Assembly: GCA_965248925.1 (NCBI GenBank)
Contig: CBDFLE010000006.1
Span: 4,864,001 to 4,928,000 of the forward strand
Source: Candidatus Multivoradales bacterium
GTDB lineage: Bacteria; Acidobacteriota; Thermoanaerobaculia; Multivoradales; J023
Direction: 5' to 3'
Length of the DNA: 64,000 nucleotides
Under the pieces are notes generated by a model. It did not search any database and had not been told where the DNA came from. It saw only the letters and a list, made by a program, of their open reading frames with translations. Numbering within the stretch: position 1 is the first letter of the stretch; each line of letters starts with the position of its first letter. Below, piece after piece: positions 37,750 to 55,205 of the stretch. The position numbers were made by a program, and so were the translations under genes.

Positions 37750-40700
37750 ATGCCTCGGCCAGTCACTCCTCGGTCTAAACTCGACCTACCAATGCACTAC
37801 GATGCCTTCATCTCCTACGGTCATGGGGCCGGCGCGCGGCTGCCGCGGGCTCTGCAGTTGGCTTTGGAGCGCCTGGCGCGACCCTGGTACAAGCGCCGCG
37901 CGCTGCGAGTCTTTCGCGACGACACCGACCTCTCGGCCAGCCCTGGGCTGTGGACGGCAATTCAACGTGGGCTCGACCAAAGCAGCTACCTCATCTTGCT
38001 GGCTTCCACCGATGCGGCGCAGTCGACCTGGGTGCAGCGGGAAGTCGACCATTGGTTGCGCAGCGGTAGAGTTCAGCGTTTGCTGTTGGTGCTCTGTGAT
38101 GGCGAGATCAAGTGGAACCCAGCGGCGGTAGATTTCGATTGGCGTCGCACCACAGCGCTGCCGAAGGTGCTGCGCGGAGCATTTGAGGAAGAGCCGCTGT
38201 GGGTAGATCTACGTTGGGCGGCGGTGGATGCGGAACTGAGCCTGGCCAATCAAAACTTCAAGAACGACGCGGCCAGCATTGCCGCCCCTCTTCACGGCTG
38301 TTCCAAGGACGACTTGGTCGGTGGCGATCTGTTGCAGTATCGGCGACCTTGGTGGTGGGTTATCGGTGTGCTGGCGGTTTTGGGGTTGGTGGGCGTCCTG
38401 GGCGGATTCCAGTGGTTGGGCAAGGTCGCGGAACGCCAAGCCAAAGGGTGGCAAGAGCATGGTCGGCAGGTGGCACGGCTGGCGGCGGAGTCGCTGGCGG
38501 CCCAGGATGGTGATCTGGGCTTGCTGCTCGCTGTCGAGGCTGCTCGGCGGCAGCAGGAGATGGGGGTGCCGCAGCAGCTCGAAGTCGACCAGGCTCTGCG
38601 CCGGTCGTTGGCGGTGCGGCCGCGTCTCGAGGCCAGCTTGCGGCATCAGGTGGCGGTGCGGTCGATGGCCTTCGCCGCTGATGGCGAAAGCTTGGCCACC
38701 GCGGATGTGGGTGGTCAGCTGCGAGTTTGGCAGGCGAATGGCCGTGAGTTGGTGCGTTTGGAACACGGCAGTCCGGTGACCGCCTTGGCGTGGAGTGCCG
38801 AGGGCCGGTGGTTGGCCAGTGCCGATGAGCAGGGCACCGCCAGCGTTTGGCTGGCTGCAACCGGCAGTGAACGGATGCGTTTCGAAGCCGCCGACGGAGC
38901 GCGCATCTGGGATCTCGAGTTCAGCCCTGGCGCCGAGTATTTGGCCATCGCCAGTGCCGATCGGAGCGCAAGGGTATTCGATATCGCCAGCCGTTCTGAG
39001 GTCGCCCGCTTGCCTCATCCGTGGTCGGTCTTCCAGGTCAATTTTGTCGCCGCTCGCTCGTCGGAGAATCCCGGCGAGTGGCTGTTGACCCGTGCCGCTT
39101 CTCAATTGCGACTGTGGCGCTGGAGCCGCGGCCGCGAGCAATTCATCTTGTCGCCAGCGGACCCGGCGATCCAGGAAGTAGTGGCGGATGTCGACCCTAG
39201 CGGCGGCTTTCTGGCGCGTGCCATCCAAGTTACCGGAGGTCAGGAGACGACCCTCTACGAAATGCCCGGGGGACAGCGCTGGGGACACTTCGGGGATGAT
39301 TCCGGCGGTTCGGGGCAGGATGTCGAGTGGCAGCTTGGCAGCTCAATGACCGCGGAGCGCATCTCGTGGGGTTCGCGCGGCCGGCTGTTGGCGGTCGCCG
39401 GCAGGGTTGACGGGGCGGCGGTGGTGCTCGATGTGGAGCGCCTGGGCAGTGGGCGGGATCCGGTGGTCACCCGGCTGCGACCGCCAGAGGGCATCCGCGG
39501 TGTCGAGATGTTGCCGGGAGGCCGCTTGGTGACCCGCTCCGATCGGGCGGTGCGCATCTGGGAGACCGCCAGCGGCGCCATGTTGAGTGAGATTAGAGCG
39601 GCACCGGCGATCGACCAGATGATCGTGGCCTCGGCCGGGGAACGCTTGGCAGTGCGCTCTGGCAACACGGTCAGTGTTTGGCAGCTGCAAGGCTACCAAG
39701 AGCAGCTGAAGATCGCCGACCGGGCCCCCTGGCGGGATCTGTGGAGTTTTGACGGCCGCTTTCTCCTAGGTCAAGAGGGGACTCAGGAGATTACCCTGCG
39801 GGAGGCAGTCAGCGGCAATATCGCTGCCCGTCTGGCGGTGGACAGCGCGCTCTATGCGGGTGTGAAGGCGACCACCTTCAGTCCCGATGGGCGCTGGTTG
39901 GCGGCGGCGCTGGAGCAGGCGGTGGTCGTTTTCGACATGAGCAGCGGCCAGGCGGCGGCCCGCATTCAGCTGGCTGAGCAACCCTTGCGAGTGAGCTGGA
40001 GCGGCTCCGGCCGGTTGGCTTTGGTGACTCGCAACCAACTCGAATTCTGGGATGTGGTTTCGAATCAGCGGATTTTCCGCTTGCCGCTGCCGGCGGTACT
40101 CGGGGAGCTGGCCGCGAGTCCCGATGGACGCCGTCTGGCGTTGACTTTCGGTGATCATTTGCGGTTGATCGATACCGCGGATGGCCGCCAACTTGCCGCC
40201 TTGCCGTGGCTTGGCCAGGCGGGACTGATGACCTGGAATGTCGCCAGTGAGCGCCTGGCGACAGCCGACTCAGCTGGCTTGCGCCTGTGGGATGCGGAGG
40301 GTCGGCAGGTGGGTGAGTTCGAAGTTGTCGAAGCAGGCATTCTCGCCCTTGAGTTTTCCCCCGATGGCGAGCTCTTGGCCACCGGTTCCGAGTCTGGGGC
40401 GTTGGTGTTGTGGCGGGTTGCCGACGGGGTAGAAGTGCAACGAAGGCAGCTTGTGGGCCAGGTAGCAAGGCTCGATTTCAGCGCCGACGGCGCTTATCTG
40501 GCAAGCGCCGCGGGCGGCTTGCTGGAGAGCCGTGGTCAGGCTCAGATCTGGCAGGCCGAAGGGCTGCGTCCCCTAGCAGACCTCGAGCACTCGCGCGGGC
40601 TGCTGGCGATGGAATTCTCACCCGATGGACGCTGGCTGGCAACCCGCACCGCCGAGCCCATGTTGCGAGTCTGGGCGTGGCGGCCGGCAGACTTGATCGC

Positions 40701-41487
40701 TGAGGCTTGTCAGCGCTTGACCCGCAATCTCAGCGCTGAAGAATGGCGTTACTATTTCGCCGGCGCAGTCGCTGGCGCAACTCAGCCCTATCGCGAGACC
40801 TGTCCCGGTCTTGACTCTGAGCCTGCCAGCCACGCAGCTACCGCCGCGGAAGCCAGAAATCTGAGCGGTCGATCGCCAGCGGGGCCAGCGATTCGGACCC
40901 TCGCCCTGGAGCAGGCAGTCTTGATCCCCGAGGCGCCCCTTGCCGACGGCCAAACCGAGCCCTCGCCGGCCGTGGCGGACCCGGCCCCGGCAGCAGAGCC
41001 GCCGCCGGTCGAATCCAGCCCAGCGACCGATCCCACCCCCAAGCCTGCAACTCCGCCGCCGGCCGCCGCAGCTGATGAGCTGAGTGTGAGCGACATTGCC
41101 CGGTTGGGATCGGAACTCAAGCGCCTCAGTGTTCGTATTGTCGACGAGTACGAGGACTTTCTCGATCGTGAAGACTATGACACCGAGGGCGAGGAAGACG
41201 ATATCGAAGAGTTGCTCGAAGACTTTGCCGAGGCCGCCAGTGATTTTGCCGGCACTGCCCGTCGGGCGAGCGGCAAGGGAGGCGCGCTGAGCGTGGCCTT
41301 GCGCGGCGGCAAACGCAAGTCGCAAAAGAGAGCGGAGGATAACCTGCGCCAGAAGCGCCGCCAGATGCTGCGCTATGGTGGTCGTCTACGACCGTTGATG
41401 TTACGTTATCCGGTCGGCTCGGCGGCTGAACGCAGTTGGCGGCGGATCGATCAATTGCTCGGCCGGCTTGCTGCCGAGAGTATTTAG
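37750..41487 (+). CDS. TIR domain + TM + WD40 beta-propeller protein with Pro-rich linker and acidic C-terminal domain
   Basis: YDAFISY..RVFRD..S.WVQRE; TM WWVIGVLAVLGLVGVLGGF; many FSPDG..LA..W repeats; AC.RL.RNLS.EEW..PY..TCP; start 37750 or 37792. Confidence 0.92.
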   Translation: MPRPVTPRSKLDLPMHYDAFISYGHGAGARLPRALQLALERLARPWYKRRALRVFRDDTDLSASPGLWTAIQRGLDQSSYLILLASTDAAQSTWVQREVDHWLRSGRVQRLLLVLCDGEIKWNPAAVDFDWRRTTALPKVLRGAFEEEPLWVDLRWAAVDAELSLANQNFKNDAASIAAPLHGCSKDDLVGGDLLQYRRPWWWVIGVLAVLGLVGVLGGFQWLGKVAERQAKGWQEHGRQVARLAAESLAAQDGDLGLLLAVEAARRQQEMGVPQQLEVDQALRRSLAVRPRLEASLRHQVAVRSMAFAADGESLATADVGGQLRVWQANGRELVRLEHGSPVTALAWSAEGRWLASADEQGTASVWLAATGSERMRFEAADGARIWDLEFSPGAEYLAIASADRSARVFDIASRSEVARLPHPWSVFQVNFVAARSSENPGEWLLTRAASQLRLWRWSRGREQFILSPADPAIQEVVADVDPSGGFLARAIQVTGGQETTLYEMPGGQRWGHFGDDSGGSGQDVEWQLGSSMTAERISWGSRGRLLAVAGRVDGAAVVLDVERLGSGRDPVVTRLRPPEGIRGVEMLPGGRLVTRSDRAVRIWETASGAMLSEIRAAPAIDQMIVASAGERLAVRSGNTVSVWQLQGYQEQLKIADRAPWRDLWSFDGRFLLGQEGTQEITLREAVSGNIAARLAVDSALYAGVKATTFSPDGRWLAAALEQAVVVFDMSSGQAAARIQLAEQPLRVSWSGSGRLALVTRNQLEFWDVVSNQRIFRLPLPAVLGELAASPDGRRLALTFGDHLRLIDTADGRQLAALPWLGQAGLMTWNVASERLATADSAGLRLWDAEGRQVGEFEVVEAGILALEFSPDGELLATGSESGALVLWRVADGVEVQRRQLVGQVARLDFSADGAYLASAAGGLLESRGQAQIWQAEGLRPLADLEHSRGLLAMEFSPDGRWLATRTAEPMLRVWAWRPADLIAEACQRLTRNLSAEEWRYYFAGAVAGATQPYRETCPGLDSEPASHAATAAEARNLSGRSPAGPAIRTLALEQAVLIPEAPLADGQTEPSPAVADPAPAAEPPPVESSPATDPTPKPATPPPAAAADELSVSDIARLGSELKRLSVRIVDEYEDFLDREDYDTEGEEDDIEELLEDFAEAASDFAGTARRASGKGGALSVALRGGKRKSQKRAEDNLRQKRRQMLRYGGRLRPLMLRYPVGSAAERSWRRIDQLLGRLAAESI

Positions 41488-41502
41488 AAGGGGTGAGGAT
41501 TC

Positions 41503-43140
41503 ATGCAACGGTCACAGAAGACCGCCCTGACGCTGGCGTTGGCGACCTCAGTGGTGGCCAATTTCGGGTTGATTTATTTGCTCTGGCGCCACCGTCGACA
41601 ACTTGGTTCCTTGGCGGGCTTGATGGGTGCGACCCCCAGCCAGTTCGTGTTCCTGCCGATGGTCTTTCCGCTGGCGGTTTATTTTGTGGCGCGGGCGGGT
41701 TGGATGGTGGCGGAATTGACCCAGCGGGCACCCCTGCGGCGACCGCGGGCAGTGGCGCTGGTGGCCTCGCAAGGACGTTGGATAGCGATCGGCGCGGTGG
41801 TGTCGATCGCCTTGGCGACCCTCTACTTCGCCGGTAGGGAAGCCAATTCCCACGCTCTCTACCTGCTCGAACGGCCTTATGCCGCGGCCGCGGGCCATGC
41901 TGCTCGCACTCTGTTTGTCGATCGCGGCCATGCTGAGCGGGTCGCGCGGTTGTTGCCCGAGGTGGTGGCCAGCGAGCCACGGCAGCGCCTGGAGGAAGCC
42001 CAGCGGCTGGCTCTCGACCTCGACCAGGGACGGCTGGATTCTTTCACTCTCGATCAGGCTGCGCGCTACTTGGCGATCGCCTATCAGGCGCCTCGCTCGG
42101 CGACCGAGGAACGCCTGCCGATCGATCCTTGGGCGCGATTTTTCGAGTCGTTGTCGGTGGCGCTGGCTTGTTTTGTCGGTTGGTTGCTGATCGGCTATGT
42201 TCTGCTGCTGACTCTCTACCGCTTGCGTGGCCTGCGGCCGAAACGAGCTTTCAAAGGGGTTTTCAACAGTGCCGCGTTGGCGGCCTCGATGTTCGGCGCT
42301 TGGTTGGGGCTGCGCTTTTTTAGCCTGCGCGAGATCGAGCTCTTCTTGCTCCACCGGCATCACCCCGACCGGGCCTTTCTTTGGCAGGTGGCGGCGATCT
42401 TGATGGTGTTGGGGGGCTTGCTGGCTATTCTGTCCGTCGGCTGGCTGCGCCCACCCGAGCGCCCTGCATGGCGCTACGCCTTGAGTCGCTTGTTGCCGCT
42501 GGCGGTGCCAGGGATAGTGGTCAGTATTCTGGCCTTGCGTTGGCCAGGGGTCATTCGTGAAGGGGTGGGCTCAGTGGCTGGCTGGGGGCAGCTGCTGCCG
42601 GCGGCCTTGCTGTTGGCGCTGATCGCTGGCTTGTTGACTTTCTCGCAGCCCTTCGTGGTGCGCTGGCGGGATTGCGACTTTCCCGTCTTGCGTCACCGGC
42701 TCTTTGTCAGTTACAGCCATCGCGATACTGCTTGGTGTTTGCTGATGAAGAACTTCCTGGCTAGTCGGTCGCGAACTCAAGAGGAGGAGCTAGCGATTTG
42801 GAATGATCAAGAAATTCGTTCAGCGAGCGATTTTCGGCAGGCTATCGCCAGAGCGGTGGACGAGAGCCAGGCAGCTTTGCTGCTGGTCAGCCCCTCTTTT
42901 CTGAATTCAGAGTTCATCCAACGAAGCGAGCTACCTTTGTTGCGCTCGGCGCGGCAACAAGAGGGTGAAGACTTCAAGATTTTCTGGCTCAAGCTTGAGG
43001 ATTGCGAGATTGACGAGCCATTAATCGAGCAGGTGCAGGCTTTGTACGATCCTTCCCGTCCGCTCGATAAACTACCGATCGAGACGTTGGAGAATGCCCT
43101 GGCCCGTGCCGCCGATGAGATTGCTGCTGGCTTGGTGTGA
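41503..43140 (+). CDS. Multi-TM membrane protein with C-terminal TIR domain
   Basis: About 8 hydrophobic helices; LFVSYSHRD, IWND..I, LLLVSPSFLNSEFIQRSEL; 15 bp after previous gene. Confidence 0.88.
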   Translation: MQRSQKTALTLALATSVVANFGLIYLLWRHRRQLGSLAGLMGATPSQFVFLPMVFPLAVYFVARAGWMVAELTQRAPLRRPRAVALVASQGRWIAIGAVVSIALATLYFAGREANSHALYLLERPYAAAAGHAARTLFVDRGHAERVARLLPEVVASEPRQRLEEAQRLALDLDQGRLDSFTLDQAARYLAIAYQAPRSATEERLPIDPWARFFESLSVALACFVGWLLIGYVLLLTLYRLRGLRPKRAFKGVFNSAALAASMFGAWLGLRFFSLREIELFLLHRHHPDRAFLWQVAAILMVLGGLLAILSVGWLRPPERPAWRYALSRLLPLAVPGIVVSILALRWPGVIREGVGSVAGWGQLLPAALLLALIAGLLTFSQPFVVRWRDCDFPVLRHRLFVSYSHRDTAWCLLMKNFLASRSRTQEEELAIWNDQEIRSASDFRQAIARAVDESQAALLLVSPSFLNSEFIQRSELPLLRSARQQEGEDFKIFWLKLEDCEIDEPLIEQVQALYDPSRPLDKLPIETLENALARAADEIAAGLV

Positions 43141-43185: not shown

Positions 43186-43531
43186 CCCGGACTCGCGAGC
43201 CGGACTAGTGGAAGATCCAGCCTGGGTTGTTGAAGTACGGATAGAACCAGTTGGCCGGATCTCCGTTGCTGGCGTGAGGTGCTCCCCATGGTTGTACCAT
43301 TGCCAATGAAAATTTTGACACACTCTCACTTTATCCTTGCTCATCGCACCAGCAAACTCAGCCGGTGGCAGGTTCCCCAACTAGCTATGGGGACGTACAT
43401 GGTTGTAGTTCAGTCGCTGCCCCGACTCCACTTGGTCGAGAACTCGGATGATCTGCTCTTCACTGAATCCAGACCTCCTGACCTACCCCTCCTAACCCTC
43501 TGAAAACACAGGACCGCCCCTCAGAGGTGGT

Positions 43532-44208
43532 GCGGACCCAAAACTGTCCGCTTTTTTCGGTGCCGAGGCATGATCGAGCATGGCACTGACGAGCGAGCAC
43601 ACCGTCCTGTTCCCAGACCACGCCGGGGTCCCCGATGGGGTTGTGGTGATCAACGACCGCTGCCGCCTCCAGCAGAGGGGCGGCTATCGGGTGGTGGTGG
43701 TCAGCGGCATGCCGCTCGCTCACTTCGCTGCCGGCGACAGGACAGGCGAGGCCCACGCGATGGTGAGTCTCGTTGAATTGGGCTGGGCACAGCAACGCGA
43801 GGTGGCCCTTGCGTTCGCTTGTGATGTGCGGACTGTGCGCCGGAATCAGCGCCGCTTCGAAGAAGGTGGGCTGGCTGCTCTGGGCCGGCCGCGCGGTTTT
43901 CCCCGGGGTCAGTCTCGGGTAGCGCAGGGCCGCCTGGACGCGGTCAACGGCTGGAAGGCCGAGGGTGTGTCGAATCGCGAGATTGGCCGGCGGCTGGGCA
44001 TCGATGAGAAGGCCGTTCGCAAGCTCGCCAAGCGCCTGGGCTGGAAAGAGCGGTCGGTAGTGCAGATGACGATGCCCTTCGAGAGTGCGGACCCAAAACT
44101 GTCCGCCTCTGATGAGCAGCAGGTCGACGGCCCCCTGAAAACTGCGGATCTTGCGCTCGACGCTGAGGGTGGCGGTGACCCAGCGGCTGCGGACCCAAAA
44201 CTGTCCGC
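43532..44208 (+). repeat. Three copies of 20-bp palindrome GCGGACCCAAAACTGTCCGC (43532-43551, 44087-44106, 44189-44208)
   Basis: Read directly; first copy is followed by TTTTTT, the others encode ADPKLSA. Confidence 0.92.
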
Positions 44209-45973
44209 TTCTGCGTCCGAGCAAGATCAGGTTCCCCTCTCGCTGGACCTCGATCCAGCGGATCGCGCCAGCGATCGGCTGCTGGCGAGGCTGGGATTCC
44301 TCGATGATGCGGCGCCGATCTTCGGAGCGGCGACCCAGCTACCGGGCGCCGGTGCTCTGCTGGCGATTCCCGCCCTGGTGGACAGCGGCGTGCTCTCCAT
44401 CGCGCAGGAGCTGTACGGCAGCATCGGGCCGGCCTTCTATGGGCTGCGCACCACTCTGGTAACCCTGCTGCTGATGGCACTGTTGCGGGTCAAGCGACCC
44501 GAAGGGCTCAAGGAGCGCTCACCCCGGCATTTGGGTCAGCTTCTCGGGCTCGACCGAGCGCCGGAAGTGAAAACCTTGCGCAACAAGCTCGCTCGGCTGG
44601 CCGCGCATGGCCTGGCCGCGGATCTCGGTCGCGCCCTCGCTCAGCGCCGGGTCGCCACCAGGGGCCATGCCATGGGCTTCCTCTACGTGGACGGGCATGT
44701 GCGCGCCTACCACGGTGGCCGAGAGATTCCCAAGACACACGTAGCGCGGATGCGGATCGCGATGCCGGCCACCACCGACTACTGGGTCAACGATGCTGAG
44801 AGCGAGCCTCTCTTCGTGGTTCCCACCGAGGCCAACAAGGGGCTTGCGACGATGCTTCCCCTCATTCTCGAAGAGGTACGAAAGCTACTCGGAGACCGGC
44901 GAGTCACCGTCGTCTTCGACCGTGGGGGTTGGAGCCCGAAGCTGTTTGCGAAGCTCATCGCCAAGAAGTTCGACATCCTCACATACCGAAAGGCCCCCTT
45001 TCGTCCGGTGCCGTTGAGCAAGTTCGGGCAGATCAAGGACACGATCCACGGGCGGAAGCTCGAGTACCTCCTCGCCGATCAGCGTATCTACCTCGAGTAT
45101 GGCCCGAGGAAGAAGCGCAAGCGGCTGTACCTGCGCCAGGTCACCCGCCTCTGCGACAACGGCCACCAGACGTCCATCATCACCTCCCGCCGCGACCTCT
45201 CCACACTCGAGGTCGCCTACCGCATGTTCGATCGTTGGAGGCAAGAGAACTTCTTCAAATACCTGCGCGAAGAATTCGCACTCGATGCCCTGGTGGACTA
45301 TGGCACCGAGCCAGCGGACGCCGCCCGCGATGTGCCGAATCCCGAGCGCGGCAAGATCAATGCAGAGCTGCGCAAAGCTCACGCACATCTCGAGCAGCTT
45401 CGGGCCCACATCGGGATCGCTGCTCTTGAAAACCGCGAGGATCGGCGGCGCACGATGCGCGGATTCAAGATCGCCAACGCCGCCATCTCCGCCAGGGTCC
45501 GGGCAGCGATAGAGCAGATCACCGAACTCGAGAACCAGCGCGCGACCCTCCCCGTCCGCGTCCCCGTCCAAGAGGTCGTCGAAGCGGATGTCATCAAGCT
45601 GTCCGTCGAGCGCAAGCACCTCACCGATATTCTCAAGATGGTCGCCTACCAGGCCGAAGGTGATCTTCTCCGGCTCCTATCACCCCACTACCGCCGCACC
45701 GAGCAGGAGGGACGCACCCTGATCCAAAGCGCTTTCGCGGCCGGCGGCGATATGGAGGTTACCGACACCGTGCTGCTCCTTTCCATCGACCCGCTCAGCT
45801 CTCCCCACAAGACGGCGGCGATCGCCGCCGTCTGCGAAGAACTCAACGCTACCGCCACCCACTTCCCCGGCACCGAGCTACGGATGCGGTTCGCGATCAA
45901 GAAGGCGCCACCCCGGAGCCTGGCCTTCCCAGGGCCTCGGAACACCTCCGGAGAGGCTCAACCGGACATTTGA
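43580..45973 (+). CDS. DDE transposase, protein identical to 4629-7022
   Basis: Identical 797-aa translation. Confidence 0.9.
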   Translation: MALTSEHTVLFPDHAGVPDGVVVINDRCRLQQRGGYRVVVVSGMPLAHFAAGDRTGEAHAMVSLVELGWAQQREVALAFACDVRTVRRNQRRFEEGGLAALGRPRGFPRGQSRVAQGRLDAVNGWKAEGVSNREIGRRLGIDEKAVRKLAKRLGWKERSVVQMTMPFESADPKLSASDEQQVDGPLKTADLALDAEGGGDPAAADPKLSASASEQDQVPLSLDLDPADRASDRLLARLGFLDDAAPIFGAATQLPGAGALLAIPALVDSGVLSIAQELYGSIGPAFYGLRTTLVTLLLMALLRVKRPEGLKERSPRHLGQLLGLDRAPEVKTLRNKLARLAAHGLAADLGRALAQRRVATRGHAMGFLYVDGHVRAYHGGREIPKTHVARMRIAMPATTDYWVNDAESEPLFVVPTEANKGLATMLPLILEEVRKLLGDRRVTVVFDRGGWSPKLFAKLIAKKFDILTYRKAPFRPVPLSKFGQIKDTIHGRKLEYLLADQRIYLEYGPRKKRKRLYLRQVTRLCDNGHQTSIITSRRDLSTLEVAYRMFDRWRQENFFKYLREEFALDALVDYGTEPADAARDVPNPERGKINAELRKAHAHLEQLRAHIGIAALENREDRRRTMRGFKIANAAISARVRAAIEQITELENQRATLPVRVPVQEVVEADVIKLSVERKHLTDILKMVAYQAEGDLLRLLSPHYRRTEQEGRTLIQSAFAAGGDMEVTDTVLLLSIDPLSSPHKTAAIAAVCEELNATATHFPGTELRMRFAIKKAPPRSLAFPGPRNTSGEAQPDI

Positions 45974-46542
45974 GAAAAAGGGTATGTCAGGAGTTCTGGA
46001 ATCTGGGGAGCACTTCAGGTGGAGCTGGGAAAGAGAGAACAGGCCACCGAAGACCTCTCTCCGCGTCTTTCCACCAACAGTGCCCAGCGGTCCAATCTTG
46101 ACCGCAGGAAGTATGACTGAGGGTATGCACCCGACCCTCTCAGGGTACATCGCAGAGCCTTGACGCCATAGCAGCCCGCTATCGTGTACCCTGGCGGGGT
46201 AAGTTCCGGCACGGAGGGGGCTGAGCAAGTTCTGCTTTGCCAGAGAGTCTACTCCTTTCTAGAGAAGTACCCGTCCCGGGACTTCTCGCTTGCGCCAACA
46301 ATTGGAGAGAATCGCTCAAGTCCCTCGCCTAGTTGCCTAGCAGCAAGGCGAAGAGTCTTCAATGAAGCCCAAAGTACGGATCCGCTGCTAGCTTGGTGGG
46401 CACCGCCTGCACAGAGCGACCGCAGTGGAGCGGCCTCGGGAGAGGCGGGTACAGGGGAATTCGATGGCCATAAAATTCGCTTTAACAGCTGCTGCTGGAA
46501 TCAATTGGGGGGCCCTAGTTGATCCGACAGGCTGAGCTAGAA

Positions 46543-47916
46543 CTACCGTGAAAGCCTGTTTCCAGACAGGAGCCGGCTGCGCGGATGCCGACCTAGCCTG
46601 CGCGCACCGGCCAATTTTGTTCGGATATCCTCCAGCAGGACTGCTTTCGTCGTGAGCCAGTCGAGTCTGGCGAACTCAATCAACGCGGCTTCGCAGATCG
46701 AGTTCGTCTCTTGATTCATTAACAGCTTCCGAGTGTCCTGGACCACAGTTTGGACTTCACCGAACTTACCCAAGGCGATCTTCGTTTCGGCTAGGTCAAC
46801 GCTAGCCAGGGCCATATCGAAGGGGTTGATGGTCGCAAACAGCTCCACAGCCGCAGCCATTCGTGCTTCTGCCTCCTCCAGGTCACCAACTTTCCAACTC
46901 GCAGTTGCTTCAGTCCGGAGTAGCCAAGCTTCGAGGTACGGTGCTCTCTCCCTCGGTAGGAGAGACCTCGCAAGTGTTAGGTGAGTAGCCGCATCCGAAA
47001 ATCTCTGCTTCTGCAACAGCCAGTCCGCAGCATGTTGGTGCATGCCGAGGCGCAACTTCCATCCAGCGCCGTCTAGGAGTTGCAGATACCGGGACAACTG
47101 CCGATCATCCATTGTTCTCAGCAAGATGCTGCATCGAGCTAGGGAAAGTTCGGCCTCGTAGTAGGCCACCTCGCGGGCATCCGCCATCCGCAAGGCTTCT
47201 TCAAAATGTCGCTGTGCTTCAGCGTACTTTCCCTGACAAACGAGGAGCTGTCCGGCTGCTTGATACCGGCCAGAGGCATCATTGCCGCAAGCAGGATTGA
47301 CCATGCTCTGGGAAGCTCGAATAGCTGATTCTAACCAGCCACCGAGGCGGTAAGCCGTCACGAGTGAAATAACCGCCCTTTGTGCTGCTTGACAGTTCCC
47401 TCCAGCGCCCCCGGCACCCTCGACGAGCGCCCTAGCTAGCTTCGCCGAGGCACCCGGATCTCTGAAGCGAACGATGGCCAGATGCTCACAAGCTACTTCC
47501 ACCGCCTGCAACGTTCTCCAGCACTCCTCCTCGCGAAAATGCTGGGCCAGTGCCGGCTCCGGTAGCACTTCGAGTAGCAACTGAAGCCTTTGCGGCTCTG
47601 TAGAGCAGCAGGAGGCAGTCTCGCCAAGGAACGCCGCACGCAGAGCAACACTGACGCCTGGATCGCCACGGCTGGTACCGAGGAACTCGGCCGGGTCGAG
47701 CCCGGTCACCCTATTGAAGAACTCTTTGGGCGACACCCTCATCGCCGCCAGCACCAGATCCAAGCTTGGCAAGCTCATCGCGCCAGTGTTCAGCGCGCGA
47801 CTCAAGTAGCCGATGCTGAGGCCAGCTCGGACATCGATTTCTCTCTTCAGCAGCGGGTGAGCCTCGACCATCCGGCTCAGAACTTCGATCACCCTTGATA
47901 GTAGCTCCCCCTCCAT
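46543..47916 (-). CDS. XRE-like HTH + TPR-like regulator
   Basis: REIDVRAGLSIGYLSRALN..L..VL.AM.VSP.EFF N-terminus; TPR-like helices; C-terminal MALASVDLA segment resembles MASVALDLA in the 7453-7971 part. Confidence 0.75.
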   Translation of the reverse strand: MEGELLSRVIEVLSRMVEAHPLLKREIDVRAGLSIGYLSRALNTGAMSLPSLDLVLAAMRVSPKEFFNRVTGLDPAEFLGTSRGDPGVSVALRAAFLGETASCCSTEPQRLQLLLEVLPEPALAQHFREEECWRTLQAVEVACEHLAIVRFRDPGASAKLARALVEGAGGAGGNCQAAQRAVISLVTAYRLGGWLESAIRASQSMVNPACGNDASGRYQAAGQLLVCQGKYAEAQRHFEEALRMADAREVAYYEAELSLARCSILLRTMDDRQLSRYLQLLDGAGWKLRLGMHQHAADWLLQKQRFSDAATHLTLARSLLPRERAPYLEAWLLRTEATASWKVGDLEEAEARMAAAVELFATINPFDMALASVDLAETKIALGKFGEVQTVVQDTRKLLMNQETNSICEAALIEFARLDWLTTKAVLLEDIRTKLAGARRLGRHPRSRLLSGNRLSR

Positions 47917-47978
47917 CGCATGACGCTCCTATTCTGATTTCCCCGCAGCCTAGCACGACAGGCAAATCGTCAATCCAG

Positions 47979-48037
47979 TCAGCAAGAATGCTGATCCATC
48001 TGCTGCCATACGGCGATGAAATCAGCATCTTTGCTGA
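47979..48037. promoter_or_regulatory. Two palindromic operator candidates TCAGCA-N4-TGCTGA (47979-47994, 48022-48037)
   Basis: Both perfect palindromes, 43 bp apart, in the divergent intergenic region. Confidence 0.65.
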
Positions 48038-48125
48038 TTCTTCTAAATTTTGCTCAGAGAGTTCCGCCTGTTCTCTAGGCTCTTCGTATGCCTGAATCGT
48101 TCCTACTTGAAAGTAGATCGCCCCG

Positions 48126-48413
48126 ATGACCGAAGACCAAATCCAAGCCGCCCTGAGCCCCCTGATCGGCTGGCGCCGCGCCCAAGACGTCCAAGCGATC
48201 GGCAAGCACTTCCTGCTCGACACCTGGCGCGACGCCATGATCTTCGTCGACTTCGTGCTTTTCACCGGCGAGCGGCAGGCGATCACCCCGCGAGTCGTCA
48301 TCGTTGGCCGGCGGCTCAGTGTCCAGATCGGACCCCGACCCCCAGCCAGCCTGAACAGCAGGCATTTCGAATATGCCCACTCCCTCGACCTCCCATGCGG
48401 ATCCGGCGGATAA
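48126..48413 (+). CDS. PCD/DCoH-fold protein A', degenerate active site
   Basis: MTEDQIQAALSPLIGWR..IGKHF..WRDAMIFV..LNSRHFEYAHSLD; no HHP. Confidence 0.75.
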   Translation: MTEDQIQAALSPLIGWRRAQDVQAIGKHFLLDTWRDAMIFVDFVLFTGERQAITPRVVIVGRRLSVQIGPRPPASLNSRHFEYAHSLDLPCGSGG

Positions 48414-48440
48414 ACCCTGAGGCCGCCGGAGCCCTTCCTA

Positions 48441-48482
48441 CCTCCGGGCCGGGCCTCTCTCCCGGCCCGGAGGCTCTTTTTT
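48441..48482 (+). terminator. Terminator-like hairpin between A' and B'
   Basis: CCTCCGGGCCGGG-CCTCTCT-CCCGGCCCGGAGG-CTCTTTTTT. Confidence 0.8.
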
Positions 48483-48514
48483 CACCCGGTAAGACCCTCA
48501 CCAGGAGAATAGCA

Positions 48515-48826
48515 ATGAAACCAGAACGCATCCAACTCGGCTTGCAGGGCTTGGTCCACTGGCGTCAACCCAGTACCGCAGATCAGGTCATCAGCCGGCA
48601 GATCGGCCTCGCCAACTTCACCAGCGCCAGCGACCTGCTGCGCAAGAGCCTCGTGCTGGCCAAGAGGCTGGAGATGCCGCTCGATCTGCACCTCCAAGGC
48701 AGCACCTTGAAAGTGCGCCTGCCCTGTGCTCCCGAAACCGAACTCACCGAGCGCCACCTTTCCCTGGCCCGCGCCATCGAGAGCCTAGCCGCCGAGGTAG
48801 AGCAGCGGGCACCCCGCCATGGATAG
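48515..48826 (+). CDS. PCD/DCoH-fold protein B'
   Basis: AGGAG RBS; MKPERIQLGL..ELTERHLSLARAIES; paralog of 8788-9096. Confidence 0.78.
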   Translation: MKPERIQLGLQGLVHWRQPSTADQVISRQIGLANFTSASDLLRKSLVLAKRLEMPLDLHLQGSTLKVRLPCAPETELTERHLSLARAIESLAAEVEQRAPRHG

Positions 48827-49238
48827 CGGGACAGAGCAGCTAGACGACGTTGAGCTGCGCGCGCCGCTGCGCCAGGTCGCCTCTCAAGTCACCGGTGCCT
48901 CCCTGCGCTTGGAGCATTCCTGGATCGTGGCGCGGGCCAAGCTCCAAGTGACCCCCAGCACCTCCACTGGAGACCTTGCCGGCAGCTTCCTGGCGAGCCT
49001 TAATCGCTGCTACTTGGAGCCCGCATCCGCCATCCTCTGGTTCGTCGACAAAGTCCTCGACTCGCGCCGTGGTGGTCACCGGCAAGCCGAGCAGTTTCTG
49101 CGCACTCTGGCCGAGCGACACCCCATCCCAAGGCACGGGCAGCGCCGCTGCGAAGCCATGGACCAGCTGGCCAACACCCTCACGCAATGTGCCCTCGAAA
49201 CAGCTCTGGCCGCGAGCCAAGTCAATGACCGCCGGTGA
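48819..49238 (+). CDS. Hypothetical helical protein (cassette gene C')
   Basis: 8-bp overlap with B'; paralog of 9089-9484. Confidence 0.7.
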   Translation: MDSGTEQLDDVELRAPLRQVASQVTGASLRLEHSWIVARAKLQVTPSTSTGDLAGSFLASLNRCYLEPASAILWFVDKVLDSRRGGHRQAEQFLRTLAERHPIPRHGQRRCEAMDQLANTLTQCALETALAASQVNDRR

Positions 49239-49332
49239 AATTTTTCGAGGCCTGTTGTAACGATGCCGGCCCTTTTACGCCTATAGATACTGAAGCGACC
49301 GAAACCCGTGTCCGCGAAAGGAGCAAACCCCA

Positions 49333-50004
49333 ATGCCGAGCCATCACGTCCCTTCTGCCTTGCCGGTTCTCTTACTCACCGCCCTGCTCACCCTGCCATC
49401 CCCAACCCAGGCTCTCGACCTGACCTTCGACAGCCACGCAGCCACCGCCGTCGGCCTGGCGGCCGACACCCCGGTGGCCTGGCTGTGGACCGGGCGGGTG
49501 GTCGAGGGCTATTCCACCCGCGTTGAACTCGAAACCCGCGCCGGCCTGGCCGACCGCTCTGGGGCGGTGCGGCTCCTGAGCGAGCGCCCCTTGCCCGAGC
49601 AGTCGATCTGGGCATTGGCTGACCTCCGCAGCGGCGACCTGCTGCTCGATTGGCCAGCAGCCTCGCGAGCCAGCCTGCTGGAACTGCCAGCCGTGGACTT
49701 GGAGCCCGACCGCCTGACCCTCGCCGGTCGCCGCTACCAGGCTCTGCTGATCCGCCCCGGCGTCGGCGCCTGGTCTGCCCTGGTGACCGATGGCGGCGAC
49801 GCCGATGCCGACGGCGAACAGAACGCCAGCGTCACCGTAGCGGTGGAGCACTTGCTGCCGCTGAATGAGGAAACCCCCGCCACCGCCGAGCGCTTGAAGC
49901 CGGGTGATCGCCTGCTGCTGGCCGACCCCGACCACCTACGTCTGTGGGTCGCCGCCATCGATCGCGAATCATTCAAGGATCCGTCCCCCAGCACCTCTCG
50001 CTGA
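49333..50004 (+). CDS. Secreted hypothetical protein preceding RHS gene
   Basis: AAGGAG RBS, signal peptide (TQA), DGGDADADG loop; 17 bp before RHS start. Confidence 0.8.
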   Translation: MPSHHVPSALPVLLLTALLTLPSPTQALDLTFDSHAATAVGLAADTPVAWLWTGRVVEGYSTRVELETRAGLADRSGAVRLLSERPLPEQSIWALADLRSGDLLLDWPAASRASLLELPAVDLEPDRLTLAGRRYQALLIRPGVGAWSALVTDGGDADADGEQNASVTVAVEHLLPLNEETPATAERLKPGDRLLLADPDHLRLWVAAIDRESFKDPSPSTSR

Positions 50005-50021: not shown

Positions 50022-53000
50022 ATGAAAACCACCCCCCAGCCCTTCCGTCTGTTCTCCGCCGGCTGCCTGCCGGCCTTGATTCTGGCCCTGCTGCCAGTGC
50101 TCTTCCTCTTGTTACCCGCAATTACTCATGGTGCGCAGCAGCATCCCACTAGCGAGCGTGGATTCGACGCCAAGAAAGCCTACGCCTTTGCCGATACCGA
50201 TCACGTCAGCCTCTACAACGGCGCCCTCACCCTAACCTTCCCCATCGGCCCCACATACAGGGTAGGTCGCGGTCTGTCCTACGCGCTAACCTTGGTTTAC
50301 AGCTCCAAATTGTGGGACTGGGAATTCGAATGTGGCACGGGTAACTGTGGGTCGGTGGCTTGGGCCAACCGCGACAGCAACGGCGGCTTCGGTTGGCAGC
50401 TTTCGCTCGGAAGGCTGGTGGCTCCGCTGACCCCGCCGCGCAACGACACCCCTCGCTGGCTATACATTTCAAGCGATGGTAGCGAACATTTTTTTTACGA
50501 TTCATTGGTCAACGAAGCCCCGGTGGCCAACGTTTACTACAGCCGCGACAGCACTTACTTGCGGCTGAAGAAGGCAGGTAGCCAGTGGCAGCTCGAAGAC
50601 GGCAGCGGTATCACCCACACCTTCAACGCCAATGGCGACCTGCGCCGGCAAGAGGACGCCTTCGGGAACTACCTGACCATCGGCTATGGCGCCAACACCT
50701 GGGATATCGCCGACAGCACCGGCCGTACCCACACCTTGACCTTCGCCAACAAGCTACTTGACGGCGCCCAAGTACCGCACCTCACTCGCGCCAACCTGGC
50801 GGCCTTCGGCGGCCAGCGGGCACTTTGGGACTTCACCTACCAGCTCGCCACCGTCGACCGTCCCGCCCCGTCGCCGAACGAGGGCGCCTACGCGCCGCCG
50901 AGAGCGCATTTCCTGACGAAGATCTCGCTGCCCCACGGCCAGAGCTACGAGATGGGGCCGGTGGCCCAGCGTTACCACCTGTCGCGAGCCACGGACCCCC
51001 GTAGCGTCGGTCAGATCAAAGCGGTCGATTTGCCCACCGGCGGCCTGGTGGCCTGGACGTACGAAGACTACAAATTCTACACTAACGGCGAACCGCTGAG
51101 CGGTCCGGGACGTCCGCGGCTTGAGTTTCAGCTCTCCTCAGGGGTCAGCTCGCGGCGCCTGGTCGACACCGATGGTGGCGAGTTGGGCAAGTGGACTTAC
51201 AGCCAGGCGGTAACCTCGGAGAGTGGCAATCCGGCGGTCGAGTCGGTCACCACGGTCCGGGCACCCTCGGGGCAGAAGACGATCCACTTTTTCTCGACCT
51301 ACCAAGGGGGCACCACCAGCGTTACCACCGCCAACGAACTCGATCTGGGGCTGCCCTTCACGCCGAAGAACCCGGTGGGTGAGCGGCGCCTGTCGCAGCG
51401 GGTACTGTCGGCCGGCGGCACCGACCTTCGCCGGGTCGAGGTAGGCTACAAACGAGACGCCGCCGCGCCAATTAGGGATGTGCAGGTCCGTGGTCAGCTC
51501 GCCCCCGCGGCGCGCGATCGTAATCAACGAATATTCGTTACCCGTACGATCTACAAGGACGACGGCAACAGGTACGCCGAGAACCGCATGTCGGGCTATG
51601 ACGGCGTGGGCCACTATCGGCGCACAGTGCGCAAGGACAACTTCGACGGGGTGAAAACGCGCAACCAGTTCACCCGATATCATCCCGGCGGCATGCCCAA
51701 CACTAACCAAGCCTGGGTCCTCGGAACCTACGACTACCAGACCACCGTCGACACCGGCGGCGCTACCTTGCGCCGTGACACCTGCTTTGATCCGGCGACC
51801 GGCTTCTTGAAAGTCGAGCGGGTGCGCAAGGCCAACCCCTCGCCAAGCTCGGACGACGTGGTGCTCACGATGAGCTACGACCTCGATCCCGGCAGCAAGA
51901 TCGAAACCGTGGTCGTGCGCCATTTCGGCGGTGATACGGGCGCCGTGGCGGCGCCCGGCGACGTCTGTGCGCTGAATCCGGCGCACAGCACTAGCCACGT
52001 TGCTCTGGAACACAAGTGGCAGTACGGCTCGGGCCGCTCAAGCCAATTCTTGAAACTCGATGGCAGCCGCTTCTCCTTCTTCGAAGTGCTCCAGGCGGTT
52101 GATCGGAACAGCGGCCTGATCAGTGCGAGCACCGACCGCTCGGGATTGGTCACCACTCTCAAGTACGACCTTCTTGGCCGCCGAATCGAGTCCAAGCCCT
52201 CTGCCGGCCACGGCGCATGGACGCTATACGCCTACGCCAACACCTTCAACTCGGCTGGCCCCAAGATCGAGATCCGTCACATCGACCGCGATACCACCGC
52301 CTCTCTGGCCAAGCGCGAGCTACGCTTCGACGGTATCGGCCGGTTGATCTTAGAGCGCCAGCGCCAGCCTAGCGGGCTGTGGGCCAAACGGGTGACCGCC
52401 TACAGCGGCGAGGGTTGGACCCAGAGTCAGTCCGAGTGGTACCGCCCCGCGAGCACCGTCCACCGCACTTATTTCGATCACGACGCCTTTGGCCGGGTGA
52501 TCAAGGTCGTGCCTCCCGATGGCGCAACCCACGATGTGCGAGTGACCTACGTTGGCGATCGGCGGGTGAAGCGCTGGGGGCGGGTGGGAACCTCGGTGGC
52601 TGGGAACGGCAGCGTCAACCAAACCCAGTTTGCCACCGAAGAGACTTACGATGGCTATGGCCGGCTGGTGCGGGTATCCGAGCCCGCAGGCGGTCTGCTG
52701 GCGACCTACTTTTACGACTCCGGCGATCGGTTGAAACAGGCTAATCTGAAGGGCGGTAGCACCACCCAGATTCGTACTTTCGAGTACGACGGTCGAGGCT
52801 TTCTCCGCTCCGAGAATCACCCCGAGGCGCAGCAGATCACCTACAGCAACTACGACTCTCGTGGCAAGGCCCGCCGCCGGGTGCAGGCCGGCGTCGACCT
52901 GTCCTACACCTATGATCGGGCCGAGCGCTTGACCTTGGTTCGCGAAGGCTCGGCCGGCAATAGGGTCCTCAAAGAGCTGACCTACGCCACCACCAACGTG

Positions 53001-54959
53001 GGCAGCAACCGACGCCGAGGCAAGCTAGAGAAGGCGGTGCGCCACAACTACGTCTTCAGCCCCCTCCTCCCCGGCAAGGTGCTCGACGCGACGGTCACCG
53101 AGACTTACACCTACAAAGGCCGCGACGGGCGACCCTCAAGCAGGCGCACCCGCGCCGAGGTCAACGGTACGCTAGTGACCGACTTCAACCAGTCATGGGC
53201 TTTCGACGGCCTCGGCCAAGTAACCCAGCTGGGCTACCCGCGCTGCTCAGGCATCACCAATTGCCCCAACGTGACAGCGCCCTCGCCCAACCGCAGTTTC
53301 ACCCACGCCCTGGGCTACTTGGTAGCGGTGCCGGGCTACGCCAGCTCCCTGACCTACCATCCAAGCGGTATGATAGCCAACGTTGTGCATACCAACGGCC
53401 TCACCGATGTTTGGGACGAAGATCTAGGCCGGCCCCGGCCGAGCAGGATCAGTGTCACCGGTACGGTAGCCACCAGCCTGGGTGACCACAGCTATGACGG
53501 ATCCGGAAACCTGGTCCGCCGCCGCTTTGCCGGCGTCTTCGACGATCATTACACTTACGACGGCTTGAACCGAATCAAGGTCTTCGAAGATTCCTCCGGC
53601 GACCAAGGCTATCAATACGATCCGTTCGGCAATCTGACCGGCATCACCGGAGTCAACGGCCGCACCCTGGCCGTCAATCGAGCCACCAATCGGCTCAGCG
53701 GCGCGGTGGTCTACGACGGTCGTGGCAACGTCCTCGCCTGGGGCTCGCAGCTTTATTCCTACGATGCTTTAGGCATGATGAGCACCCGCAACTATCCCGA
53801 AGACACCTACATCTACACCGCAGACGAAGAGCGCCTGTGGACCTTCCACTGGCAGGGCTCCTTCGAGAGCCTGGTCGAGACCTGGACCGTCCGCGATCTT
53901 GACGCCAAAGTGCTGTCGATCTTCGAGAACCCCAAAGGCACCAATCCCTGGACCTTCCTCAAGGACTACGTATATCGCGGCGGCCAGCTGCTGGCCGCCG
54001 ACACTCATTTGACGAGCCGCCGGTCGCGACAGCACTTCAGCCTTGACCACCTGGGCAGTTCGCGGCTGACTACCGACCGCAACGGTGCGCCGATCGCCAG
54101 CCACACTTACTACCCGTATGGCGAGGAGGTGGCTACCGCTTTTGACTCAGAGCAACTCAGGTTTACTGGGCACGAGCGAGATTTTGCTGGCGGAACCTAT
54201 GATTTGGACTACATGCATGCTCGGCATTGCAGTCCGCAGCTGGGGCGGTTCTTGAGTGTGGATCCGGTTCTGCTTTCCAGCGTCGCTCTTCCGGCCCCCC
54301 AACAGTGGAACCGCTTCAACTATGCGATCAACAACCCGCTCAATGTCACAGACCCAACTGGGATGTATGTAGTTAACTGCGCTGGCGATCCAAAGTGCAA
54401 GTATAACTCAAATAGATTTGAGAAAGCTCGCCAGAGTAACCTGGGGGCCACTAGAGAAGGAGTGGCAGCAACAGCTTCTGCCTATGGGGGCCCAGGAGTA
54501 AAAAATGGTGTTGAAGTTGTGTTTGGGTCTACGAAGCCCGGTTCCGCAGCCAATGCGAGCTTCGACATTACCTTCAAACAAGGCAGCGGATTTAGCCTTG
54601 CTGCGATCATTACTATTCAACCCAGCCTGGACAACGATGAAATGCGGGCAACCGTTGGACACGAAGGGCAGCACTTGGTCGACGCTCAGGCATTTTTCAA
54701 CACTTTCACGGACGCAGGCACCTATGATTCCTCAAAGAACTTAACGACTTTTCAAACAGAGACGAACGCCTTTTGGATAACGCAACGGATTCTAAGCCTC
54801 GACAATAGTTCCTTTGCTTACGAGGTAAAGGGTGCCAGTACGGTTCGCCTTAAGGGCATGGATTCTAAAGCGCGCGTTGAGTCGAAGATCAATAAGATCT
54901 TGTCGGGGTCGTTGTATAGAAACGAACTGAAACGTCTGATGTTTCCTAATTTGCCGTAA
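50022..54959 (+). CDS. RHS/YD-repeat protein with signal peptide and C-terminal HExxH domain
   Basis: YD repeats; core DHLGS.R, YYPYGEE, FTGHERD, GRFLSVDP, Y..NNPL..TDPTG; tip VGHEGQH..TETNAF. Confidence 0.93.
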   Translation: MKTTPQPFRLFSAGCLPALILALLPVLFLLLPAITHGAQQHPTSERGFDAKKAYAFADTDHVSLYNGALTLTFPIGPTYRVGRGLSYALTLVYSSKLWDWEFECGTGNCGSVAWANRDSNGGFGWQLSLGRLVAPLTPPRNDTPRWLYISSDGSEHFFYDSLVNEAPVANVYYSRDSTYLRLKKAGSQWQLEDGSGITHTFNANGDLRRQEDAFGNYLTIGYGANTWDIADSTGRTHTLTFANKLLDGAQVPHLTRANLAAFGGQRALWDFTYQLATVDRPAPSPNEGAYAPPRAHFLTKISLPHGQSYEMGPVAQRYHLSRATDPRSVGQIKAVDLPTGGLVAWTYEDYKFYTNGEPLSGPGRPRLEFQLSSGVSSRRLVDTDGGELGKWTYSQAVTSESGNPAVESVTTVRAPSGQKTIHFFSTYQGGTTSVTTANELDLGLPFTPKNPVGERRLSQRVLSAGGTDLRRVEVGYKRDAAAPIRDVQVRGQLAPAARDRNQRIFVTRTIYKDDGNRYAENRMSGYDGVGHYRRTVRKDNFDGVKTRNQFTRYHPGGMPNTNQAWVLGTYDYQTTVDTGGATLRRDTCFDPATGFLKVERVRKANPSPSSDDVVLTMSYDLDPGSKIETVVVRHFGGDTGAVAAPGDVCALNPAHSTSHVALEHKWQYGSGRSSQFLKLDGSRFSFFEVLQAVDRNSGLISASTDRSGLVTTLKYDLLGRRIESKPSAGHGAWTLYAYANTFNSAGPKIEIRHIDRDTTASLAKRELRFDGIGRLILERQRQPSGLWAKRVTAYSGEGWTQSQSEWYRPASTVHRTYFDHDAFGRVIKVVPPDGATHDVRVTYVGDRRVKRWGRVGTSVAGNGSVNQTQFATEETYDGYGRLVRVSEPAGGLLATYFYDSGDRLKQANLKGGSTTQIRTFEYDGRGFLRSENHPEAQQITYSNYDSRGKARRRVQAGVDLSYTYDRAERLTLVREGSAGNRVLKELTYATTNVGSNRRRGKLEKAVRHNYVFSPLLPGKVLDATVTETYTYKGRDGRPSSRRTRAEVNGTLVTDFNQSWAFDGLGQVTQLGYPRCSGITNCPNVTAPSPNRSFTHALGYLVAVPGYASSLTYHPSGMIANVVHTNGLTDVWDEDLGRPRPSRISVTGTVATSLGDHSYDGSGNLVRRRFAGVFDDHYTYDGLNRIKVFEDSSGDQGYQYDPFGNLTGITGVNGRTLAVNRATNRLSGAVVYDGRGNVLAWGSQLYSYDALGMMSTRNYPEDTYIYTADEERLWTFHWQGSFESLVETWTVRDLDAKVLSIFENPKGTNPWTFLKDYVYRGGQLLAADTHLTSRRSRQHFSLDHLGSSRLTTDRNGAPIASHTYYPYGEEVATAFDSEQLRFTGHERDFAGGTYDLDYMHARHCSPQLGRFLSVDPVLLSSVALPAPQQWNRFNYAINNPLNVTDPTGMYVVNCAGDPKCKYNSNRFEKARQSNLGATREGVAATASAYGGPGVKNGVEVVFGSTKPGSAANASFDITFKQGSGFSLAAIITIQPSLDNDEMRATVGHEGQHLVDAQAFFNTFTDAGTYDSSKNLTTFQTETNAFWITQRILSLDNSSFAYEVKGASTVRLKGMDSKARVESKINKILSGSLYRNELKRLMFPNLP

Positions 54960-54980: not shown

Positions 54981-55205
54981 ATGCAAGATTTAGCTCGAAC
55001 TGCCTGGGTTGCCTGCATTCTCTCTTTGAGTTTCTTGCATTGCGGGCTCACGAACGCGGCAGAGCACGAGTTGAGCCCGTTGCGAGAAGTAAAAACGGCA
55101 ACAATTTTCGTTCTCGTAGTTTATGATCGGGGGCGAATAAGGAGACCTGACGATTGGCTCCTGTCGCCCATCAACTTTCAGGCCCTGTCTACGCCGGGAA
55201 ACTAG
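54981..55205 (+). CDS. Short secreted ORF, possible truncated immunity gene
   Basis: GAGG RBS, signal peptide, directly after RHS; LSPLREV resembles LSPLDHV of 55507. Confidence 0.5.
   Translation: MQDLARTAWVACILSLSFLHCGLTNAAEHELSPLREVKTATIFVLVVYDRGRIRRPDDWLLSPINFQALSTPGN

Follow-up and report, generated by a model that had tools for sequence, protein, structure and literature searches.

Which part of a repeated gene module acts as its regulatory switch is the question raised by a 64,000-nucleotide stretch from Candidatus Multivoradales bacterium (contig CBDFLE010000006.1, positions 4,864,001 to 4,928,000; hereafter, the window). Each of the two module copies in the window carries a gene for a regulator with a helix–turn–helix (HTH) head and a tetratricopeptide repeat (TPR) domain (R1 or R2), two genes, A and B, for proteins of the pterin-4a-carbinolamine dehydratase (PCD/DCoH) family, and a conserved gene C (Table 1). 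A first-pass annotation had proposed that a complex of A and B forms the switch together with C. At the level of sequence, the conserved and co-varying unit is instead the regulator with a small peptide gene that converges on it. As the reading that we hold to be on balance somewhat probable, we propose an RRNPP-like switch, in which the regulator and its peptide form the switch, with A as the first product and a hairpin that gates B, C and the cargo genes.

Regulators and their convergent micro-genes

Each regulator is paired with a predicted peptide ligand, encoded by a micro-gene (P1 or P2) that was overlooked in the earlier annotation. By one rule applied to all genes, we detected a motif peptide at 31 of the 51 regulators of this family in the genome (family profile seeded from R2), including 21 of the 24 linked to a module, versus 11 of 1671 control genes; of the module-linked regulators, three had no peptide, and at least two of these were frames cut short. 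The peptides share the consensus [FYW]-G-x-x-I-x-P-x-G, with 29 distinct 9-mers among the 31. The rule itself fixes the proline, the final glycine and one hydrophobic residue, but not the aromatic residue at −9 or the glycine at −8, the latter being present in 21 of the 31 peptides. The peptides are 11–43 aa long, and 27 of the 31 end at the motif glycine. A convergent motif peptide was also found in 16 of 23 genomes of the family (one regulator each, by visual inspection, with one doubtful row discarded). Precursors from the other families of this order contain the motif one to three times, and the eight that were chosen all had hydrophobic N-termini (best 11-residue hydropathy 2.5–3.5). A reading of the peptides as ribosomally synthesized and post-translationally modified peptides was dropped, as no modifying enzyme recurs beside them and no NCBIfam match was obtained. 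Upstream of P2, a region of ~150 bp (46061–46207) resembles, at 75–82%, the sequence preceding gene A in two further copies and contains ACCCT-CTC-AGGGT, akin to the layout-III palindrome described below; it may be a relic promoter, or may place P2 under cross-control by the regulator of another copy.

The receptor and the peptide vary together. Between window copy 2 and its paralogue at C6:1046k, nucleotide identity was 44–68% inside a hypervariable block, versus 86–98% in the flanks, and in all four layouts of the module the identity among paralogues is low across the C-terminal part of the TPR domain and the peptide gene but rises again to either side. The similarity of the receptor C-terminal parts was correlated with that of the peptides (rho 0.42; 0 of 2000 permutations), a weak support because kin share both receptor and peptide. 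We then consider the complex of an intact paralogue (L140) with its 35-aa peptide, which scored 0.77 with ESMFold2, while the best of three controls scored 0.00; 116 of 157 solved pairs attained the mark applied, as did 2 of 215 mismatched ones, a rough comparison for which our own alignment was used. The runs agreed in at least 44% of contacts with a partner predicted local distance difference test score (pLDDT) of 38–50, and the interface comprised peptide residues 22–35, being tightest on the IxPx residues. This paralogue model supports peptide binding in the TPR domain, short of showing it. Each of the ~30 receptor–peptide pairs would then represent its own channel.

The HTH–TPR gene described beside each copy is real in both cases. 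R1 carries an AraC-type HTH_18 domain by Pfam and is split by an insertion sequence (IS). R2 matched TPR models only in Pfam and had no NCBIfam match, and its HTH is assigned from the N-terminal helical domain seen in the structural model (pLDDT 86). The suggestion of a swappable regulator held good, since the head is of the AraC or XRE type and the TPR block is exchanged, and so did that of an RRNPP-like architecture. R2 combines an N-terminal output domain with a C-terminal TPR superhelix, and the best bacterial fold matches of its model include Rap, NprR, PlcR and AimR (Z 16.5–20.1), with a root-mean-square deviation (rmsd) of 4.5 over 289 aligned residues for RapJ (Z 20.1) and of 5.2 over 309 for NprR (Z 18.9). 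A single-protein search with R2 returned only two matches, neither clearly from another genome. DNA reads from one study, maybe the source sample, confirmed positions 46408–47472 as they stand in the window.

The A-B-C genes, the likely operators and the hairpin before B

The A-B-C order occurs twice (8418–9484 and 48126–49238), with all frames open and an 8-bp B/C overlap in both copies, and 26 of the first 27 nt are identical between B1 and B2, in agreement with the earlier annotation. The copies have diverged in protein to the extent that C1 and C2 give no BLASTP alignment, yet they are homologous by profile: a hidden Markov model built without C1-type sequences recovered all three C1-type copies (E 1e-9 to 2e-12; best of 1000 shuffles, 0.16), and hhalign of the C1-type against the C2-type gave 95.6%. 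No family was found for C in Pfam, NCBIfam, PHROGs or Atlas. The ratio of non-synonymous to synonymous polymorphism (pN/pS) was 0.14–0.51, indicating purifying selection on A, B and C.

All four A and B proteins matched Pterin_4a in Pfam (23.7–34.9 bits; cutoff 26), with A1 below the cutoff and the other three above it. The structure comparison, which was done on B2 only, agreed with the assignment to the PCD fold: the B2 model (pLDDT 88.7) matched PCD/DCoH structures (PDB 2ebb, 3jst, 1f93 and 4low) in Foldseek at a template modelling (TM) score of ~0.8, and the comparison gave Z 14.7 with an rmsd of 2.2 over 94 aligned residues. HHP is the catalytic motif of PCD/DCoH. Alignment with the HHP-bearing PCD of this genome (C6:4328126) bore out its absence from all four proteins. 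Against NCBIfam equivalogs including PRK00823, A2 and B2 reached 16.6–26.5 bits, below the cutoffs of 80–146.

Two distinct doubled palindromes track two HTH subtypes of the regulator. The palindrome between R2 and A2, TCAGCA-N4-TGCTGA, has seven perfect sites in 8 Mb, six of which occur as pairs in the three copies with the HTH of R2, while three layout-I copies with other heads lack it. The sole perfect site outside the modules (C5:1729772) lies just downstream of a 330-aa gene and may be due to chance or be a remote target. The second palindrome, AGGACT-N3-AGTCCT, has eight sites genome-wide, which fall in pairs in four layout-III copies sharing one HTH subtype. This sharing (6 of 7 and 8 of 8 genome-wide sites) is due partly to descent. 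A terminator-like hairpin with a T run ends 34–42 nt before 19 of 20 B starts, versus 0 of 10 A starts and 3 of 400 random genes, and in layout IV the stem has a different sequence. The position of the hairpin between A and B argues against co-ordinate synthesis of the two proteins. No sigma-70 promoter was found in 46000–49400.

Table 1. Positions of the module genes, regulatory elements and adjoining features in the window
Feature	Position	Strand	Description
R1	3968-7971	+	AraC-HTH (HTH_18) and TPR, same family as R2; IS-interrupted; intact paralogue at C6:2762845
IS	~4602-7133 (in R1; transposase 4629-7022) and 43469-46000		Near-identical copies; 797-aa Transposase_29; end matches ~30 genome places
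P1	7989-8120	-	43 aa, ends FYPSADPLG; tail-to-tail with R1; AAGGAG ribosome-binding site
A1	8418-8669	+	PCD-family, without HHP; Pterin_4a 23.7 bits; helix 1 replaced by proline-rich stretch (alignment)
Hairpin A1/B1	8715-8760	+	Terminator-like, -30.0 kcal/mol
B1	8788-9096	+	KPERIQ-type PCD-family protein; Pterin_4a 34.9 bits
C1	9089-9484	+	Homologue of C2
D	9564-10262	+	232 aa, no known family (including NCBIfam, PHROG); common to layout II
P2	46464-46535	+	23 aa, ends WGALVDPTG; tail-to-tail with R2, ends 8 bp from R2 stop; purine-rich ribosome-binding site; predicted ligand precursor
Hypervariable block	46470-47400		Peptide 3' part and C-terminal two-thirds of TPR domain
R2	46543-47916	-	457 aa; N-terminal helical (XRE-like HTH) domain and TPR superhelix; predicted peptide receptor
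Palindromes TCAGCA-N4-TGCTGA	47979-47994, 48022-48037		Two perfect, between R2 and A2; likely R2 operators (predicted)
A2	48126-48413	+	PCD-family, without HHP, 95 aa; Pterin_4a 28.5 bits; pN/pS 0.24 (5 copies)
Hairpin A2/B2	48441-48483	+	Terminator-like, 13-bp GC stem and T run, -31.4 kcal/mol
B2	48515-48826	+	PCD/DCoH fold, without HHP, N-terminal KPERIQ, 103 aa; pN/pS 0.16
C2	48819-49238	+	139 aa, 8-bp overlap with B2; pN/pS 0.24
E	49333-50004	+	223 aa, hydrophobic N-terminus; common to layout I; no Pfam/NCBIfam/PHROG family
RHS-repeat protein	50022-54959	+	Likely polymorphic toxin cargo; RHS_repeat E 4e-17

Copies, cargo and relatives of the module

In the 8.0-Mb genome, we identified 25 matches to B (19 of full length), 18 matches to C and 26 module loci in four layouts. 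Layout I (window copy 2) consists of a divergent regulator, A, B, C, E and RHS; layout II (window copy 1) of an AraC-type regulator, A, B, C and D; layout III of nine tandem units with giant RHS, regulator, A, B, C and rve gene; and layout IV of RHS, regulator, X, Y, B and RadC, without A and C. The RHS, rve and RadC labels were confirmed by Pfam on examples. A regulator of the HTH–TPR family lies within 3.5 kb of 24 of the 26 module loci versus 5.6% of random places, and RHS-homologous sequence within 5 kb of 22 of the 26 versus 12.8% of random places; the latter count was obtained with four RHS queries and supersedes lower counts with one RHS family only (6/26 and 5/26). These counts support the suggestion of RHS cargo. 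The homology of the RHS protein of copy 2 to its paralogues ends near 54265–54365, and small open reading frames (ORFs) at 55507–57208, downstream of this protein, may be immunity genes; three ORFs there had no Pfam match. The H-NS-like ORF (10171–10383) named as the cargo of copy 1 is a weak candidate, because it has no Pfam match and is not common to the paralogous copies.

No integrase or transposase of the element type was found in the layouts of the window, the rve gene and RadC occurring elsewhere in layouts III and IV, and three alignments of copies revealed no shared element ends or att sites. No tRNA gene was found in the window. The tandem units of layout III, nine of ~20 kb each, occupy C4:147000–284000 and C5:1–61000; most contain a ~5000-aa Ig-plus-RHS protein, a regulator, a peptide and A-B-C, and B is broken in six of the nine. 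A 250-bp repeat in the window (55205–55458) is 99% identical to C6:2414312–2414558, where it lies inside a regulator gene, and is probably a small non-autonomous element.

When 1.84 billion representatives were searched with the B profile, we recovered true PCDs and an HHP-less group starting with K[PAS]ER[IV]Q (52 of 154 proteins). Among 54 aligned members of this subfamily, only K2, E4, R5, W16 and A85 are near-invariant. The loci fetched comprised 40 of 57 family matches and 20 order matches, the latter taken from HHP-less or multi-copy cases. A regulator was present at 22 of 39 HHP-less KxERxQ loci of relatives versus 0 of 20 HHP loci, as scored with a profile from the regulators of this genome only; these counts were made by eye, with two rows relabelled HHP-less and one HHP-less row without the motif dropped, and they include one weak and one 5.7-kb-distant match, some loci being cut by contig ends. 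The linkage to HTH–TPR genes goes beyond chance both here and in relatives. Neither an A-B tandem nor C was detected in any fetched locus of another genome. Of the co-occurrence anticipated across homologues, the pairing of a KxERxQ gene with an HTH–TPR neighbour stood, while the A-B-C order did not; judging from these loci, that order is lineage-specific, and relatives keep a single HHP-less KxERxQ gene.

The regulator family was found in 23 of 23 genomes of the family and, at E 1e-40 with only eight candidates scored per genome, in 8 of 23 genomes of the same class and 0 of 227 genomes of other classes. Searches with single proteins had very little reach: that with B2 returned five proteins and a match in 1 of 40 other genomes, and two metagenome scans yielded no confirmed module, with two weak loci that lacked a profile match. 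Outside this genome, homologues of C were limited to four JGI proteins, three of them from contigs of the same size as those with B homologues; one JGI protein joins B and C.

Ten family loci (L082, L083, L087, L092, L103, L104, L105, L107, L114 and L119) have the appearance of satellite-like elements, in the order regulator, KxERxQ gene, gene for a 270–350-aa protein of no family and polymerase/primase-like gene; the 270–350-aa protein has Atlas neighbours in Myxococcota (score 0.97). At 17 of 20 order-level loci (L120–L139), the KxERxQ gene is adjoined by a family of 120–145-aa helical proteins, often followed by a 170–200-aa protein and an XRE gene; the examples scanned had no Pfam, NCBIfam or PHROG match, and C is unrelated to these helical proteins (hhalign <1%). 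No Rubisco or hydroxylase gene was seen among the neighbours of the KxERxQ subfamily.

Elsewhere in the window, a 1253-aa protein resembling TIR plus WD40 repeats (by eye) lies beside a 545-aa membrane protein with a C-terminal TIR_2 domain (37726–43140), possibly a defence pair. An ECF-sigma-like gene lies beside a Ser/Thr kinase–TPR gene (28831–32381; by eye), a pair that is common in this genome. Small cysteine-rich proteins with hydrophobic N-termini are encoded at 12028–12444 and 3151–3705, the latter without a Pfam match.

A proposed peptide-controlled switch and its alternatives

The DNA itself shows how the genes are ordered, where the peptide genes lie, that TPR domain and peptide form a hypervariable block, and that palindromes, a hairpin ahead of B and RHS genes are present; the following scheme is built on these features. 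The HTH–TPR protein would bind the C-terminal GxxIxPxG peptide from the convergent micro-gene, and the peptide-controlled regulator would act at the doubled palindromes before gene A. Transcription would run from the operator region through A and halt at the hairpin unless read-through were allowed, and this read-through would gate B, C and the cargo (RHS in layout I of the window; an rve-type gene or RadC in others). The PCD-fold proteins A and B, which lack HHP, would not be the switch itself but its first outputs, of a non-enzymatic kind, with B and C serving as a downstream adaptor pair. A may also be a protein- or RNA-binding factor that helps open the hairpin gate, a tentative and somewhat unlikely role, weakened because layout IV has the hairpin without A. 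The peptide would leave the cell and return; this step is the weakest in this genome, where export is unexplained because the peptides lack a signal sequence.

Several observations weigh against the proposed switch. A signal sequence is absent from all 31 peptides of this genome, whose best 11-residue hydropathy does not exceed 1.6. The modelled complex is that of a paralogue instead of a window pair, and its score may reflect likeness to solved TPR–peptide complexes. Eukaryotic TPR proteins match the R2 fold as well as or better than the bacterial receptors (APPBP2, Z 22.7), and no RRNPP entry occurs among the best 60 of the 218 sequence matches of R2. In window copy 1, the regulator is broken and no RHS lies within 40 kb; 27 of the 51 regulators have no module, 6 of the 25 B copies are partial, and two module copies lack C. 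The copies within one genome are kin, so that the counts overstate their independence. The hairpin is found at only 3 of 36 KxERxQ genes of relatives. Together with the regulators that have no module, the lack of a PCD-fold gene at all 38 relatives' loci chosen purely by regulator score makes the link one-sided; 40 regulator loci were fetched, and the single positive had been selected with knowledge of its PCD-fold gene.

No literature on this system was found in a search that left most subscription papers outside. The module resembles the RRNPPA systems (NprR/NprX, PlcR/PapR, Rgg/ComR) in its N-terminal DNA-binding head, its TPR superhelix and the small adjacent peptide gene, as well as in its many paralogous channels, single or repeated pheromone precursors and frequent mobile-element context (PMC9765709). 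The RRNPPA family was found only in Firmicutes, the phylum searched (PMC9765709); unlike those of Bacillota, the present system occurs in Acidobacteriota, with a tail-to-tail peptide gene, no signal sequence, and AraC as well as XRE-like heads. By analogy, the module appears to work like RRNPPA, and most like the many-channel Alo systems, but we do not class it as a member, because no secretion signal was found here and common descent with Rap, NprR, PlcR, Rgg and AimR is only putative. The Alo systems of Paenibacillus exceed 25 receptor–peptide pairs per genome, and their recurring spo0E-like neighbour gene is read as the immediate output, as are A and B here (PMC7425212). However, in Alo the peptide comes after the receptor and has a hydrophobic helix for secretion, and a Spo0E-like protein takes the place of the PCD fold as output; the accessible text on Alo gives no RHS link (PMC7425212). 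Arbitrium (AimR/AimP/AimX) likewise has a peptide–TPR receptor and an output gene behind an intrinsic terminator that requires read-through, but AimR binds right beside the terminator, where spacing matters (PMC10769878), while the palindromes here lie ~400 bp upstream with gene A between; unlike in arbitrium, no phage genes were seen here. A and B share the fold of Raf2/acRAF, whose inactive PCD domain has a protein-binding role (PMC5859369). In contrast to the PCD/DCoH family at large, the K[PAS]ER[IV]Q-start subfamily has many copies per genome and is tied to TPR or XRE regulators.

Since no peptide here has a signal sequence, the main rival is an intracellular toggle, in which the peptide never leaves the cytoplasm and switches its own receptor on or off, as a private toggle or as a guard against cross-talk among ~50 paralogues. 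We regard it as rather unlikely. The peptides are short, most end at the motif and would thus need no processing, and the loci have no recurring exporter or protease gene as a neighbour, but elsewhere in the order, outside this family, the motif stands in one to three repeats on precursors whose N-termini are hydrophobic, a 'chatterer' layout as in RRNPPA (PMC9765709), and the many distinct peptide types fit private channels under either model. The switch of the earlier annotation, in which A and B form a DCoH-like complex that binds the regulator together with C, the regulator being an exchangeable input, now appears improbable. The DCoH fold of B, the A-B-C order kept in three layouts of this genome, the three JGI pairs of B and C homologues on same-sized contigs, the joined B–C protein and the action of the inactive Raf2 domain via protein binding (PMC5859369) are all consistent with it. 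It is nevertheless the regulator with its peptide that is conserved and co-varies; the A-B tandem and C are missing from the loci of other genomes and A and C from layout IV, the hairpin splits A from B, most regulators have no module, and the joined B–C protein ends out of frame, so that a single indel may explain the fusion.

A further reading, to which we assign a similarly low probability, regards A, B and C as passengers, remnants of a mobile element's early operon that spread with the toxin cassettes; they would now adjoin the regulator but not be its functional output. Such an origin would fit the ten loci of relatives in which the KxERxQ gene precedes the primase-like gene, directly after an XRE gene in six of them, the RadC and rve genes that follow in layouts IV and III, and the many broken copies. 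The pN/pS values, the hairpin, overlap and palindromes kept across diverged layouts, and the lack of shared element ends, att sites and tRNA noted above argue against it. Finally, A and B could be variant pterin-4a-carbinolamine dehydratases or pterin-binding sensors, as the fully kept fold and the three Pfam scores above the cutoff would allow; the loss of HHP, the low equivalog scores, the separate HHP-bearing PCD in the genome and the lack of conservation of the matching region among the 54 subfamily members make this very improbable.

Cytoplasmic peptide–receptor signalling has been described for Gram-positive bacteria and their elements. Under the regulator–peptide switch favoured here, a single genome of a class with few cultured members would apply the same logic through ~30 distinct channels, the block of receptor and ligand being swapped as a whole and linked to RHS toxins. 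A large PCD subfamily without HHP, at present mis-annotated as dehydratase, would gain a testable role, and the small parts involved (the receptor, a 9-residue peptide, a 16-bp palindrome, the hairpin and a 95-aa protein) suit an Escherichia coli reporter. Acidobacteriota have two membranes, as this bacterium likely does. In its widest form, which we consider unlikely, the finding would mean that class-wide, multi-channel peptide signalling exists in the two-membrane Thermoanaerobaculia independently of the RRNPP systems of Bacillota, that swappable cassettes time RHS toxin release and mobile-element activity, and that a dead PCD/DCoH fold acts as an antitermination factor before the cargo.

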